NCBI GenBank assembly: GCA_001820175.1
Contig: MHOT01000018.1
Coordinates: 15,401 to 73,703, forward strand
Direction: 5' to 3'
DNA length: 58,303 nt
DNA from: Candidatus Staskawiczbacteria bacterium RIFCSPHIGHO2_02_FULL_42_22
GTDB lineage: Bacteria; Patescibacteriota; Minisyncoccia; Minisyncoccales; Staskawiczbacteraceae
Position numbers and translations under genes: made by a program. Positions 20 through 20,122 of this stretch are shown here, one piece after another (position 1 is the stretch's first letter; every line of letters starts with the position of its first letter). The notes beneath the pieces are model-generated. The model saw only the letters and a list, made by a program, of their open reading frames with translations, was not told the origin of the DNA and made no database searches.

Positions 20-1477
20 TTATGCCTCCTTCAATAATTCCTTTTTCCGTAACTTTTTATGATAGGTAATGGCAAAGCGGTGTGCCTCATCATCAAGGTG
101 TACAATGAGGTTGTATACTTCTTGGGAAAGATTTTTTAAGGGGATATGTATTTTTTGATTTTCTATTAAAAGTTCTCGTTTTCCTTTTGCCATAGAAATT
201 ATTTTTATATTTTTAATATCTCGTACAAATCCGACGGCCGTCTGATTTGTACGAGTATTATTTTTCGCAGTTATCCCAACATTTAATTGTGCAATACCGC
301 CGTCAATAAGCATAATTTCCGGATACCCCCATTCAGGGTGCAGGAGGCGCCGCGTTAACACTTCTTTCAACATAGCAATATCATTGGGTCTGTTTTCCGT
401 TCTGATACGGAACTTTTTGTACTGACTCTTATCGGGTTTACCGCCAATAAATACGACCATGCTACCCACGGCTTGCTTGCCCTGGATGTTTGAAATATCA
501 TAGCACTCTATTTTTGAAATAGGGGTTTTAACTTGTAATAATTCCCGCAGTTTTTTTTCAGTTTTTTGCCAATACATATTTTTCCACAAATTTCCACGAT
601 CGTGGAAATTTGTGGAAAATGGATTTTTTGCTTCAGGGCTGTTTTCTATGACATTGGCGTGAGCCATGATGTTTTCCAGGGCCAATATTCTGTTTCGCAC
701 ATTTGCCGCCCCTTCGAATTTTTTTTCATCTGAAAGTTTTTGCATTTCTCTTTTTAGTGCGCGCAAAACCGTCTTTCTCTTTCCCTGTAAAATTAATATT
801 AGTTTTTTAATATTTTTTTTGTATGCCTGAATGTCCGAGTTCGGTCCGGGGCAAAGACCTAAATGGCACCAGGTACAATTTTTTTTCGAATGTCTGGGGC
901 TCGTATAAAATGGAAATATTTTGCGCAAATATTTTAAGGTTTTTTTCAAAGAAGTTCCATCCACAAATGGCCCAATATATTTTATTTTTTTCTCGTCATT
1001 GCGAGCCGCCCGCAGGCGGCGCGGCAATCTAGTTTTTAAAGAGATTGCTTCGCTGATGCTCGCAATGACGGAAAGTGTTCTTGGTTGATGAGTAATAAAA
1101 ATATACGGAAATATTTCCGCGTTGTTCTGCGTTAATTTCCGCGTAAGTCCGCGGCCGGAGGCGATCGCCACGTAAAAATAATGTTTGTCATCGCGCCACA
1201 CCGAATTAAATTTTGGTTGGTATTTTTTGATGAGTCGCGCTTCCAGTAGCAAGGCCTCAATTTCGGAATTTGTTGAAAGGAAGCGTATATTGGTAATTTT
1301 TTTTATAAAAAATGCGTCTTTATGGGTCGGCTGGAGAAAATGATTTTTAACCCGTTCTTTAATATTAATGGCCTTGCCGATATATACAATTTCTTTATTT
1401 TTACAAAACAAATACACTCCCGTCGTCACGGGAAGTCGATCGATATTTTTTCGAAGCAACACATTTTCTTTATCCAT
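20..1477 (-). CDS. uvrC: Excinuclease ABC subunit C-like (GIY-YIG + RNase H-like domain), with in-frame palindromic insertions
   Basis: GVYLF..IVYIGKAINIKERV (GIY-YIG), EALLLEARLIKKYQPKFN, IECYDISNIQG..VGSMVVF, LIDGG..Q, DEAHRFAITYH. Start placed at ATG 1477 (MDKENVLL); the longer ORF start lies in a repeat. No C-terminal HhH domain visible. Confidence 0.93.
   Translation of the reverse strand: MDKENVLLRKNIDRLPVTTGVYLFCKNKEIVYIGKAINIKERVKNHFLQPTHKDAFFIKKITNIRFLSTNSEIEALLLEARLIKKYQPKFNSVWRDDKHYFYVAIASGRGLTRKLTQNNAEIFPYIFITHQPRTLSVIASISEAISLKTRLPRRLRAARNDEKKIKYIGPFVDGTSLKKTLKYLRKIFPFYTSPRHSKKNCTWCHLGLCPGPNSDIQAYKKNIKKLILILQGKRKTVLRALKREMQKLSDEKKFEGAANVRNRILALENIMAHANVIENSPEAKNPFSTNFHDRGNLWKNMYWQKTEKKLRELLQVKTPISKIECYDISNIQGKQAVGSMVVFIGGKPDKSQYKKFRIRTENRPNDIAMLKEVLTRRLLHPEWGYPEIMLIDGGIAQLNVGITAKNNTRTNQTAVGFVRDIKNIKIISMAKGKRELLIENQKIHIPLKNLSQEVYNLIVHLDDEAHRFAITYHKKLRKKELLKEA
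580..619. repeat. 40-bp perfect palindrome TTTTCCACAAATTTCCACGATCGTGGAAATTTGTGGAAAA inside uvrC
   Basis: Exact self-complementary sequence; identical core at 16349-16390 and 17037-17078. Confidence 0.95.
994..1070. repeat. Family D REP-like palindrome (CGTCATTGCGAG...GCAATCT...AGATTGC...CTCGCAATGACG), in frame in uvrC
   Basis: 12-bp terminal inverted repeat plus internal stems; many relatives in the window. Confidence 0.92.
1113..1153. repeat. Family G (CGCGGAA-unit) half element in frame in uvrC
   Basis: Reverse complement matches 36962-37002 (CGCGGAAATTAACGCAGAAC); encodes RGLTRKLTQNNAEI. Confidence 0.8.
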
Positions 1478-1523: not shown

Positions 1524-1673
1524 GTAACCCCCCTCCGCCTCATGCACCCACCCGTCGTCATTGCGAGGAGTCCCGACCGCAGTCGGGACGACGTGGCAAT
1601 CTAAATAAGAGTGACGATGGGATTGCTTCGGGCCTGCGGGCCCTCGCAATGACGGTGGAGGTGTGAGGGGTCA
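1524..1673. repeat. Family D palindrome with outer TAACCCC...GGTGTGAGGGG shell, between divergent uvrC and the giant gene
   Basis: GTCATTGCGAGG...CCTCGCAATGAC with internal hairpins; shell shared with 43639, 46370, ~53400 and 58255 copies. Confidence 0.9.
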
Positions 1674-16348: not shown

Positions 16349-16390
16349 ATTTTCCACAAATTTCCACGATCGTGGAAATTTGTGGAAAAT
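16349..16390. repeat. 42-bp perfect palindrome upstream of the PaaX-like gene
   Basis: ATTTTCCACAAATTTCCACGATCGTGGAAATTTGTGGAAAAT, ending 18 bp before the ATG. Confidence 0.95.
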
Positions 16391-16407: not shown

Positions 16408-16998
16408 ATGAAAAAAACAAAACTCAGAAAAAAAATAAAAAGAGTCAAGAATACGAACAAAGAAACTCTGTCTAAAAAAATCTTATTATATCTTGGGGAA
16501 AAATCAAAAGAAATGTTAGATTTAAGCGTAAGGATTATGTTTGATTTTAAGAGTATTCGGTCGGAATTTGGAGTAAATTTGTATGGAAACTCTTATTATT
16601 TGCCTCGGGAATTTTATCGCTTAAAAAAGAGTCCTTATTTCTCTTATAGTCCTACCGAAGAAAAATTCTACCTTACAGAAAAGGGGCGCATTAAGATCAT
16701 AGAAAGTGTTCTAAGAAATAAAAAAATGAATCAAAAAAGGTGGGATGGTTTCTGGCGGGCGATTATTTTTGATATTCCCGAGGCAAGCCGAAACGACAGA
16801 GACTTTTTAAGAAAAGAATTGCGTTGGATTGGCTGCAAAGAAATACAAAAGAGCGTCTGGGTAACGCCTTTTGATTTTGAAAAGGAACTTATGGCAATTC
16901 TCACGTTATGGAAGCGGGATTTTAGAGGGAATATCCAATTTTTAAAAATAGAAAAAATATCTGGCGAAGAAGAAATAAAACAGTATTTTAACATATAG
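16408..16998 (+). CDS. PaaX-like / Cas2-like-fold putative regulator
   Basis: FYLTEKGR wing motif, then WDGFWRAIIFDIPEASRNDRDFLRKELRWIGCKEIQKSVWVTP, typical of PaaX C-terminal/Cas2-like CPR proteins. Confidence 0.8.
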   Translation: MKKTKLRKKIKRVKNTNKETLSKKILLYLGEKSKEMLDLSVRIMFDFKSIRSEFGVNLYGNSYYLPREFYRLKKSPYFSYSPTEEKFYLTEKGRIKIIESVLRNKKMNQKRWDGFWRAIIFDIPEASRNDRDFLRKELRWIGCKEIQKSVWVTPFDFEKELMAILTLWKRDFRGNIQFLKIEKISGEEEIKQYFNI

Positions 16999-17036: not shown

Positions 17037-17078
17037 ATTTTCCACAAATTTCCACGATCGTGGAAATTTGTGGAAAAT
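17037..17078. repeat. 42-bp perfect palindrome downstream of the PaaX-like gene
   Basis: Identical to 16349-16390. Confidence 0.95.
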
Positions 17079-17242: not shown

Positions 17243-20122
17243 ATGAAACTCGATGTTATTAAAATTCGCGGGGCCAGGGTGCATAACTTAAAAAATATTG
17301 ACCTGGACATCCCCAAAAATAAATTGGTGGTGATTACCGGGCTTTCGGGCAGCGGTAAATCATCATTAGCATTTGATACGTTGTATGCCGAAGGCCAGAG
17401 GCGCTATGTGGAAAGTTTATCGGCTTATGCCCGGCAATTTTTGGGGGTTATGGATAAGCCCGACGTTGATAAAATAGAAGGCATCAGTCCGGCTATTTCT
17501 ATTGACCAGCGCAAGTCAGTGCACAATCCCCGTAGTACCGTGGGGACTACCACGGAAATTTATGACTACCTGCGGCTTTTGTTTGCGCGTATCGGCAAGC
17601 CCCATTGCCCGAATTGCGGCAAACTAATTTCAAAGCAAACCGTGGATCAAATTGTTGACCAGGTATTAACCATTAAAGAAGGCGCGGAAATTTCAATACT
17701 GGGCCCCGTTATACGAGGAAAAAAGGGTGAACACACCGCAGTTTTGCAAGAAATTCAGCGGGCGGGTTTTGTGCGGGTAAGAATTGATAAAGATATGTAT
17801 CTAATAGAAGAAGCACTGCAAAAGCTACTAGATAAGCAAAAAAAACATGACATTGAAGCCGTTGTTGATCGGTTGGTATTGGTAAATGACTTGGATAGGT
17901 CTCGGTTAGTGGATTCCCTGGAAACCGCTTTAAAGTTAGGAAAAGGCATTGTCATACTTAATACCCAATACAAACCACCTAATACTAAAATTAAATCAGA
18001 AGATTTAATTTTTAGCGAACACTTCGCCTGTGAGGATTGCGGCATTTCCCTGGCCGAACTTGAACCCCGCATGTTTTCGTTTAATAATCCGTATGGCGCT
18101 TGCCCCGAATGCACGGGTCTTGGAGAAAAATTGGAGGTTTCGGCTGACTTGGTTATGCCCAATAAAAATTTGACGCTGGCTGAAGGCGCTATTTTTGCCT
18201 GGTCGAATGCCAGCCATAAAGTGGGTCGGCAGGGGTATTATCATTGGAATCTTTCGGAATTGGCACGTGCATACCACTTTTCTTTAGATGTGCCGGTCAA
18301 GAATTTACCCCCAAAAATTATTGATATTATCTTGCATGGAGATAATGCGGGTTTTGAGGGAGTCATTGCAAACTTGGAAAGACGATACCATGAAACTGAT
18401 TCCGAATGGACGCGTCAGGAAATTGACCAGTATATGGTAATTAAACAGTGCCCCATGTGTCAGGGAAAACGATTAAAACCGGAAGTGCTGGCGATTACCG
18501 TAGCCAGTGTTTCTGTTGATGTTATTGTCAAGATGCCCGTCGATGATTTGCAGAAATTTTTTTCCGCCTTGCCGAAACAACTGAGTGCTAATGATGTAAA
18601 AATCAGCACGCCGATTACCAAAGAAATTAATGATCGGCTTCAATTTTTGGTTGATGTGGGACTCGGGTATTTGAATTTAGACAGAAAGGCGGTTACCTTA
18701 GCGGGGGGAGAAGAACAACGGATACGCCTGGCCACCCAAATTGGATCAAAATTATCCGGAGTGCTATATATTTTAGACGAACCGTCAATTGGATTGCACG
18801 CGCGCGACCAGCACCGGTTAATTCATACGTTATTGCAACTGCGCGATTTAGGAAACACGGTGATTGTGGTAGAACACGATCCACAGACCATGATGGCGTC
18901 GGATTGGATTGTGGATATTGGGCCCGGTGCCGGCAAGCACGGGGGACGAGTTATCTTCCAGGGAACACCAGGGGCACTCCTCAAATCTAATACATTGACC
19001 GGACAATATCTATCAGGGAGGAAAACAGTTTCTGGAGAGGTATTAAGTAGTAAGTATAAAGTATTAAGCAAAGGCCAAAAAGTTGGTTTAAATACTAAAT
19101 ACCCAATACCAAATACCAAATACTTAACCGTCAAGGGTGCCAAAGAGCATAATTTAAAAAACATTGATGTGGCTTTTCCTTTGGGTAAATTTATTTGTGT
19201 GACCGGTGTTTCGGGCAGCGGCAAGTCGTCGCTTGTAAATGACATTCTGGCCCGCGCATTGCTAAAGCAATTTTACCGAGCAAAAGATGAACCTGGAATG
19301 CATACAAAAATTACCGGAACCGAACACATTAATAAGGTGGTCTTGGTTGACCAGTCGCCCATTGGTCGGACTCCGCGGTCAAACCCCGCAACTTATACTG
19401 GCGCATTTTCATTTATTCGTGATATTTTTACCCAAACGAAAGAATCGCGGATTCGCGGATATTTAGCGGGCCGTTTTAGTTTTAATGTAAAAGGCGGCCG
19501 GTGCGAGGCCTGTGAAGGACAGGGTACCAAAAAAGTAGAAATGTATTTTTTGCCGGATATTTATGTAGAATGCGAGGAGTGTCGCGGTAAGCGTTACAGC
19601 AAGGAGGTGCTGGAAATTACTTATAAAGATAAAAATATTGCCGACGTGCTCAAAATGACCATTGAAGAAGCCGGTGAGTTTTTCGAACATATCCCGGGGG
19701 TGTACGATAAAATGAAAACGTTAAAAGAGGTGGGGCTTTCTTACGTTGAACTCGGCCAGGCGGCCACTTCACTGTCGGGCGGAGAGGCCCAGCGGATAAA
19801 ACTGGCTACCGAACTTTCACGCCGCGACACCGGTAACACATTATATATTTTAGATGAACCAACCACCGGTTTGCACTTTGAAGATATTAAGAAACTGATT
19901 TCAGTATTAAGAAATTTGGTCGATAAAGGAAATACAGTATTAGTTATTGAACACAATATTTCGCTTATTGCTGTTTCGGATTGGATTATAGATTTAGGGC
20001 CAGAGGGAGGAGAAAAAGGTGGCGGGATTGTTGTCGAGGGAATTCCACAAGATATTGCAAAAAATAAAAAATCTTATACTGCCAAATTCTTAAGAGATGT
20101 TTTTTTTGGCAAGATTATATAA
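17243..20122 (+). CDS. uvrA: Excinuclease ABC subunit A
   Basis: [10 protein letters not shown], two Walker A motifs (GLSGSGKSS; GVSGSGKSS), zinc fingers, [12 protein letters not shown] and [12 protein letters not shown] signatures. Confidence 0.98.

Follow-up and report, generated by a model that had tools for sequence, protein, structure and literature searches.

Introduction

The in-frame insertion of Rickettsia palindromic elements (RPEs) into genes is reviewed in PMC10969869, and the summary given there of Ogata et al. (2000, Science 290:347) describes RPE-1 to RPE-10 as palindromes that lie in frame in unrelated housekeeping genes. The CGTC repetitive extragenic palindromes (REPs) are mostly arranged as head-to-head dimers without a dedicated transposase (Di Nocera et al. 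2013, PMC3733652). In the same survey, two CGTC REP families were found to be RPE-4 and RPE-6, and intragenic CGTC and GTAG REPs and RPEs were reported to encode 20–30 amino acid residues and to concentrate in replication and excision-repair genes, including uvrA and uvrB (PMC3733652). Here, we analyzed a 58,303-nucleotide stretch of contig MHOT01000018.1 (positions 15,401–73,703; hereafter, the window) from Candidatus Staskawiczbacteria bacterium RIFCSPHIGHO2_02_FULL_42_22. The host, an ultra-small bacterium, belongs to Parcubacteria in the candidate phyla radiation (CPR), and its assembly of 821 kb in 30 contigs is a 95% complete metagenome-assembled genome (MAG). Hairpin-forming repeats of three different kinds, here called D, G, and P40, and an older fourth one sit as in-frame loop insertions in the uvrC gene of this window.

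By their behavior, and with no relation by sequence expected, these repeats are RPE-like: they form multi-copy palindromic families with in-frame copies in conserved genes that are absent from the orthologs. We estimate a probability of about 0.8 that uvrC has been colonized by short hairpin-forming REP/RPE-like repeats that are carried in frame at permissive loops. The evidence for this interpretation and the alternatives to it are described below.

Three kinds of repeats in the uvrC reading frame

An initial annotation of the window had proposed that three palindromic elements lie in one open frame of uvrC. All three were found where it had placed them, and the translations quoted for them were correct (Table 1). 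A self-BLAST of the genome gave sharp repeat edges at about 580–626, 987–1072, and 1105–1155, and the remainder of uvrC was without repeat signal in this comparison. The GC contents of D and G were 57% and 51%, respectively, versus 37% for the rest of the gene.

Table 1. Features of the uvrC region and of the two other P40 copies near uvrA. Positions are those of the window; C18 denotes contig 18 of the assembly. Loop lengths refer to the 120 orthologs described in the text.
Feature	Position	Strand	Description	Usual loop length (orthologs)	Loop length here	Rank
uvrC	20–1477	minus	485 aa from MDKEN; GIY-YIG, UVR, and UvrC_RNaseH domains (open reading frame list, translation, Pfam)
Fourth in-frame palindrome	~220–256		CTCGTACAAATC-(C)GACGGCCGTC(T)-GATTTGTACGAG, i.e. 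CTCGTACAAATC-CGACGGCCGTCT-GATTTGTACGAG; reads TRTNQTAVGFVRD; missed in the initial annotation
P40, perfect 40-bp palindrome	580–619		In frame as (P)FSTNFHDRGNLWK(N); site 3, linker from the UVR helices to the RNase H-like domain	8–11 aa in 73/120, median 10	25 aa	3rd longest of 120
D element, complete CGTC-tagged inverted doublet	994–1070		CGTCATTGCGAG...CTCGCAATGACG; reads VIASISEAISLKTRLPRRLRAARND; site 2, short linker after the GIY-YIG region (GIY-YIG/Cys-region), before YIGPF	6–7 aa in 76/120	35 aa	3rd longest of 120
G element, one arm (four CGCGGAA-type units)	1113–1153	minus	In frame as RGLTRKLTQNNAEI; site 1, loop of a beta-hairpin that follows the GIY-YIG domain	6 or 8 aa in 109/120	19 aa	2nd longest of 120
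Second complete D element	1556–1654		~80 bp upstream of the start codon of uvrC; C18:16957–17053; fold z = −6.3
Two identical P40 copies	16350–16389 and 17038–17077	plus	Bracket a 196-aa PaaX_M (Cas2-like) domain gene at 16408–16998 (PF20803, 73 bits)

Each of the elements belongs to a family with further copies in the genome. At least 81 paired D elements were present, and the 12-nt D terminus occurred 192 times versus 0 times for the reversed control; the closest other D copy was 85% identical to the uvrC element over 88 bp. The G family comprised nine matches with up to eight mismatches, and its complete copies are palindromes of about 80 bp. P40 was present in six copies, four of which (the uvrC copy and three others) were 100% identical over 40 bp; its exact sequence was not found in 40 relatives, and it was confined to the present genome among the genomes searched. 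When folded as single strands, D adopted a cruciform shape with z = −6.8, and for P40 a hairpin of 18 bp was obtained (z = −8.4). The folding of the G arm was not significant (z = −1.2), which fits 1113–1153 being a single arm of a palindrome.

The initial annotation had regarded the three families as unrelated. They are three different repeat families, but their independence is less certain for one pair: both P40 and G are made of units with a phase of about 10 bp, (A/T)TTTCC(A/G)C(G/A), and with this common TTTCC(A/G)CG-type unit they are perhaps not fully unrelated. A distant relationship between P40 and G is possible, as is the binding of similar proteins by both.

The D arms are composite, about 30–40 nt in length. 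A 13-bp outer stem forms between the arms, conserved GCAATC/GATTGC blocks pair as an inner stem, and each arm holds a nested, GC-rich side hairpin that varies between copies. C preceded GTCATTGCG in 71 of 82 D elements and G followed CGCAATGAC in 76 of 82, the arm starting with CGTC-AT. D elements, including the one upstream of uvrC and many elsewhere in the genome, are often nested within an outer pyrimidine/purine inverted repeat of the CCCTCACACC...GGTGTGAGGG type, the flanks of which lie at 1525–1550 and 1655–1680 for the upstream copy, and are often interrupted by the small palindromes GGAGACGGGGCGAATTTGTTGCGACAAATTACGCCTCGCGTCTGG and CAGGGTGCAGTACTGTACCCTG. The repeats are a layered, modular system. 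Because the right end of D contains TGA in one frame, it is always read as ...RND or ...LAM when intragenic. No frame of the left end is closed by a stop, and in the small sample of real genes this end was read as SLR or VIA and never as HCE.

The uvrC gene and the loop lengths of its orthologs

Solved UvrC domains in the Protein Data Bank align to residues 7–100 and 308–483 of the encoded protein, and sites 1–3 fall outside both of these catalytic cores. Among 46 orthologs, Y22, Y32, K35, R42, E79, and N91 of the GIY-YIG domain and D327, D392, and H466 of the RNase H-like domain were invariant or nearly so, and the gene looks functional on this basis. The C-terminal (HhH)2 DNA-binding domain, a tandem of helix-hairpin-helix (HhH) motifs, is absent from this protein and from all 120 orthologs, which stop directly after the RNase H-like domain. 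Two population variants (P0002 and P0124) have G34C in YIGKA, a motif of the GIY-YIG domain that is invariant apart from this change; either an error in sequencing or a deleterious allele could account for it. The end of the D element located upstream of the gene generates a spurious 28-codon N-terminal extension, giving an open reading frame (ORF) of 513 residues. This ORF was rejected as an over-call of uvrC, since its upstream part runs into the repeat.

UvrC was aligned with 19 genes of related genomes and then with 120 database orthologs. The comparison came out as the initial annotation had predicted: the three sites were normally short loops in the 120 orthologs, with the lengths and ranks listed in Table 1. 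In a maximum-likelihood tree computed without the insert columns, uvrC was placed within a six-member clade with a Shimodaira–Hasegawa-like approximate likelihood ratio test (SH-aLRT) value of 95, and the other five members were short at sites 1 and 3. Site 2 was short in the members of the sister clade except for one, which holds a different repeat family. Because the sister clade has the short forms, all three inserts were assigned to gains on the terminal branch. In the public collection, the 90%-identity cluster of this protein comprised eight sequence variants, each with all three inserts, and an assembly artefact was ruled out by this agreement.

These results bear on the alternative in which the segments would be variable loops of ancestral origin, artefacts of the assembly, or signs of a decaying pseudogene, and not insertions into a working gene. 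The length variation of site 3 in all orthologs and the lack of the HhH domain would be compatible with it. On the other hand, the segments agree base for base with multi-copy genomic repeats, the loops of the sister clade are short, the eight independently assembled variants agree with one another, and the gene retains an open frame and intact catalytic residues. This alternative is largely refuted by the repeat edges, the variants, the ortholog lengths, and the tree, and we consider it extremely improbable.

Predicted structure of the inserts

An AlphaFold model of the protein was built with 46 sequences and had a mean predicted local distance difference test (pLDDT) score of 80. In this model, the G insert formed the loop of a beta-hairpin (strands 101–107 and 124–129), with a pLDDT below 50 for residues 111–117. 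The D insert was located between strands 124–129 and 165–171 and was modeled as two short weak helices (135–146 and 153–164), and 10-residue blocks across 131–160 averaged 55–58. P40 was located between helices 254–278 and 296–314, and the pLDDT was below 50 over residues 275–299. In this predicted model, all inserts are thus segments of low confidence that are flanked by well-folded secondary-structure elements. The inserts would add about 54 surface residues, which are probably disordered, to an otherwise intact enzyme.

It had also been proposed that the repeats supply new peptide, which holds only for the addition of residues to the protein and not for a gain of function. The corresponding alternative, that the inserted peptides have been recruited for a protein function, as interaction surfaces or by tuning the linker length, and retained through protein-level selection, appears very improbable. 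The two short helices predicted for the D insert are compatible with it, and the bias of the intragenic D frames toward SLR... and VIA..., in the small sample mentioned above, could reflect peptide selection. However, block averages of the pLDDT were about 37–58 over the D and P40 inserts, with the G insert similarly low at 111–117; the same sites carry unrelated peptides of other repeat families elsewhere, most orthologs have no insert, and the peptide sequence is fixed by the DNA palindrome. We infer that the inserts would be translated and would be tolerated rather than useful.

The same sites are occupied in other lineages

The three sites were also occupied outside the present species. 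On the tree, at least 23 changes were required for the presence of any insert at site 2, and 10 and 15 changes were required for the long forms of sites 1 and 3, respectively. D-type peptides (SLRG...RND) were found at site 2 in five other orthologs, with five changes, at least three of which were forced by well-supported branches. Other repeat families, of the KYQVLS...NTKYKIQNT, FDYAQGKP, and IMDGRPLL types, occupied the same uvrC sites in other lineages. We read the three sites as permissive linkers that have been struck again and again.

Repeats in the rest of the genome

Interspersed repeats accounted for 9–12% of the 821-kb genome, and its D-element load ranked first among 41 related genomes. 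The census comprised 556 repeat segments, with 47 within crude ORF calls and about 92% outside. The initial annotation had argued for a high insertion rate filtered for preservation of the frame, and this reading fits the census as well as the number of changes at site 2. Elements would land anywhere, and copies that break a gene would be purged. The intragenic copies that survive would be those that add a multiple of three bases, have a stop-free frame, and lie in a permissive loop or an inter-domain linker. UvrC would offer at least three such sites, each filled by a different family after the split from the nearest sequenced relatives.

UvrC was one of three genes that hold three repeat segments. 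Given some 26 credible segments within genes of 300 or more residues, the probability of three segments in uvrC was about 1e-4, or 0.03 when corrected for 264 genes. The three excision-repair genes made up 1.6% of the long-gene sequence and held about 5 of the 26 intragenic segments (binomial P of about 5e-5, post hoc), which matches the concentration claimed in the literature. In-frame copies were also found in other genes: complete D elements lie in MurC and RsmA, UvrB has half a D with another element nested in it as well as a second repeat, TsaD has two copies, and further ones lie in SecA, ValRS, GyrA, LeuRS, TopA, GatA, GatB, GAPDH, PGI, and others.

The genes for UvrB, MurC, RsmA, TsaD, and SecA are located at C12:46041–48140, C8:10852–12306, C27:22218–23174, C4:3690–4967, and C1:27187–29805, respectively. 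The insertions in housekeeping genes were of the D, G, or low-complexity (ENPKSQILNPK, KFQISNF-type) types, and all three excision-repair genes were affected. The uvrA gene (17243–20122) has two small insertions relative to solved UvrA, TQYKPPNT and a 16-residue one of the KYKVLS...NTKY type; the latter repeat type also fills site 2 of UvrC in other species.

Mobility of the elements

No direct repeat indicating target-site duplication was found at the flanks of 82 D elements above the shuffled expectation. Y1/RAYT (REP-associated tyrosine transposase; PF01797), rve, and TnpB gave no match in the 95% complete genome, and one DDE_Tnp_1 fragment with an internal stop was found. Y1 transposases were present in 24 of 41 relatives but were missing from the two genomes richest in D, and in four relatives that were inspected the Y1 genes had no flanking D or G motifs. 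A RAYT as the mobilizer of D was dropped from consideration, as none was found in the genome and those in the relatives had no visible link to the D load or to D flanks. Movement would leave no target duplication and would probably depend on the hairpins.

The distribution of the D termini was patchy within the genus, with 192, 111, 42, 32, 16, and 14 per genome and otherwise 0–4, and the termini were absent from 16 other genera of the order. Such patchiness is typical of recently expanding elements.

The fourth palindrome and possible roles of the DNA or RNA

The fourth palindrome corresponds to residues of about 408–420 of UvrC, in a loop of the RNase H-like domain. A scan against Rfam flagged it as a generic hairpin below the threshold. 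Four further long hairpins of the genome have the same GACGGCCGTC core at their apex. A 24-aa form of this loop was found in 17 of the 120 orthologs, scattered on the tree and always 10 codons longer than the common form. In 14 orthologs with available DNA, a hairpin of the same length was present at the same site; the stem differed in each, and all 16 pairs changed on both sides. Paired cells in these orthologs amounted to 86.6%, versus 61.5% after shuffling and 29–40% with the pairing slid. Selection on the structure, repeated insertion of different family members, and perfecting of an inverted repeat by template switching could each account for this covariation.

These data bear on the alternative that the palindromes are functional nucleic-acid elements, which we regard as quite unlikely. 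P40 would then be an operator of the PaaX_M protein, defining a uvrA/uvrC regulon or acting as a roadblock, and the 220–256 hairpin, and perhaps D, would be an RNA or DNA structure with a role, for example, in the pausing of translation, in processing by RNase, or in the binding of proteins. One of the two P40 copies that bracket the PaaX_M gene (17038–17077) lies about 165 bp upstream of uvrA; this arrangement, the identity of four of the six copies, and the covariation of all 16 stem pairs are consistent with such roles, as is the post hoc over-representation of nucleotide-excision-repair genes among the intragenic segments. However, the remaining three P40 copies adjoin unrelated genes and none is near uvrB, and the absence of P40 from the 40 relatives would make any regulon species-specific. 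The covariation could also arise without selection, by independent insertions of different family members or by template-switch perfecting, and the same repeat families are present in many unrelated housekeeping genes. That P40 is a putative protein-binding site of the PaaX_M protein is a possibility suggested by its sequence context. The related proposal that some of the coding palindromes are kept as nucleic-acid signals, P40 as a PaaX_M operator and 220–256 as a selected structure or the footprint of a site-specific mechanism, is unlikely. In the site-specific variant, hairpin-primed inverted copying of the local flank would rebuild palindromes at the same uvrC codon across Staskawiczbacteria.

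Returning to the proposed colonization of uvrC by REP/RPE-like repeats, several observations weigh against it. The strict palindromy at 220–256 and the four identical P40 copies hint at a constraint on some of the elements and not at neutrality. Site 3 is a linker of variable length across all orthologs, and the P40 insert is accordingly less clear-cut than the other two. In one non-sister species, a three-unit G-type insert at site 1 has both the codon position and the reading frame of the present one, which suggests either a common origin followed by losses or renewed insertion at a preferred site. A search of 5.8 billion proteins gave no close relative, and thus no near-identical genome, in which a site is empty: the 90% cluster consisted of insert-bearing variants, and the next homologs were about 60% identical, so that the insertion events were deduced from the phylogeny and not seen directly. 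Finally, the MAG is 95% complete, and a mobilizing enzyme could sit in the missing part.

Significance and comparison with known systems

Selfish DNA within protein-coding genes has been described from Rickettsia and a few Proteobacteria, and the repeats in uvrC extend this range to the very large CPR/Patescibacteria radiation. It also provides a natural experiment, since the same three UvrC linkers have been struck often by different families, which gives a map of permissive sites of the enzyme, and it helps account for lineage-specific loop insertions in CPR proteins. The published, unexplained concentration of intragenic palindromes in nucleotide-excision-repair genes recurs here in an independent phylum. 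For genome annotation, such repeats inflate and mis-start ORFs, as in the 513-aa uvrC call.

Across Rfam, no family scored above the threshold for the repeats, and only generic hairpins were obtained below it. [quoted passage not shown] As in MITEs, terminal inverted repeats are present in D, whereas target-site duplications and an intact transposase were not found. D resembles the elements of the REPIN-RAYT system (Bertels and Rainey 2011, PMC3116915) in being an inverted doublet that forms a long hairpin, in its high copy number and patchy distribution, and in the lack of target-site duplication, and differs from them in that the present genome has no Y1/RAYT gene.

The likeness to RPEs lies in the several palindromic families in a small genome, with in-frame copies in unrelated housekeeping genes that would be read as extra peptide. 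RPE copies lie at positions compatible with the fold, and here the AlphaFold model predicts low-confidence segments between secondary-structure elements. Unlike RPEs, which are about 100–150 bp in length, the elements here are 40–80 bp, and about 8% of the repeat segments are intragenic, compared with nearly half for some RPE families. In addition, the host here is a CPR bacterium, and a single gene holds three or four different families.

In comparison with CGTC REPs, the arms of D are about 30–40 nt and composite, in contrast to a stem of 8–9 bp, a loop of 4–5 nt, and a CCA tail; D is often nested in or interrupted by other palindromes, and CPR bacteria lie outside the phyla surveyed in PMC3733652. 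Because its arms are longer and composite, D is not a member of the four CGTC REP families. The two share, on the other hand, outer CGTC/GACG ends followed by AT, a head-to-head doublet with a variable spacer that forms one large hairpin, the lack of any dedicated transposase found, and intragenic copies that encode 20–30 residues and are concentrated in excision-repair genes. In its behavior, D matches CGTC REPs still more closely than it matches RPEs.

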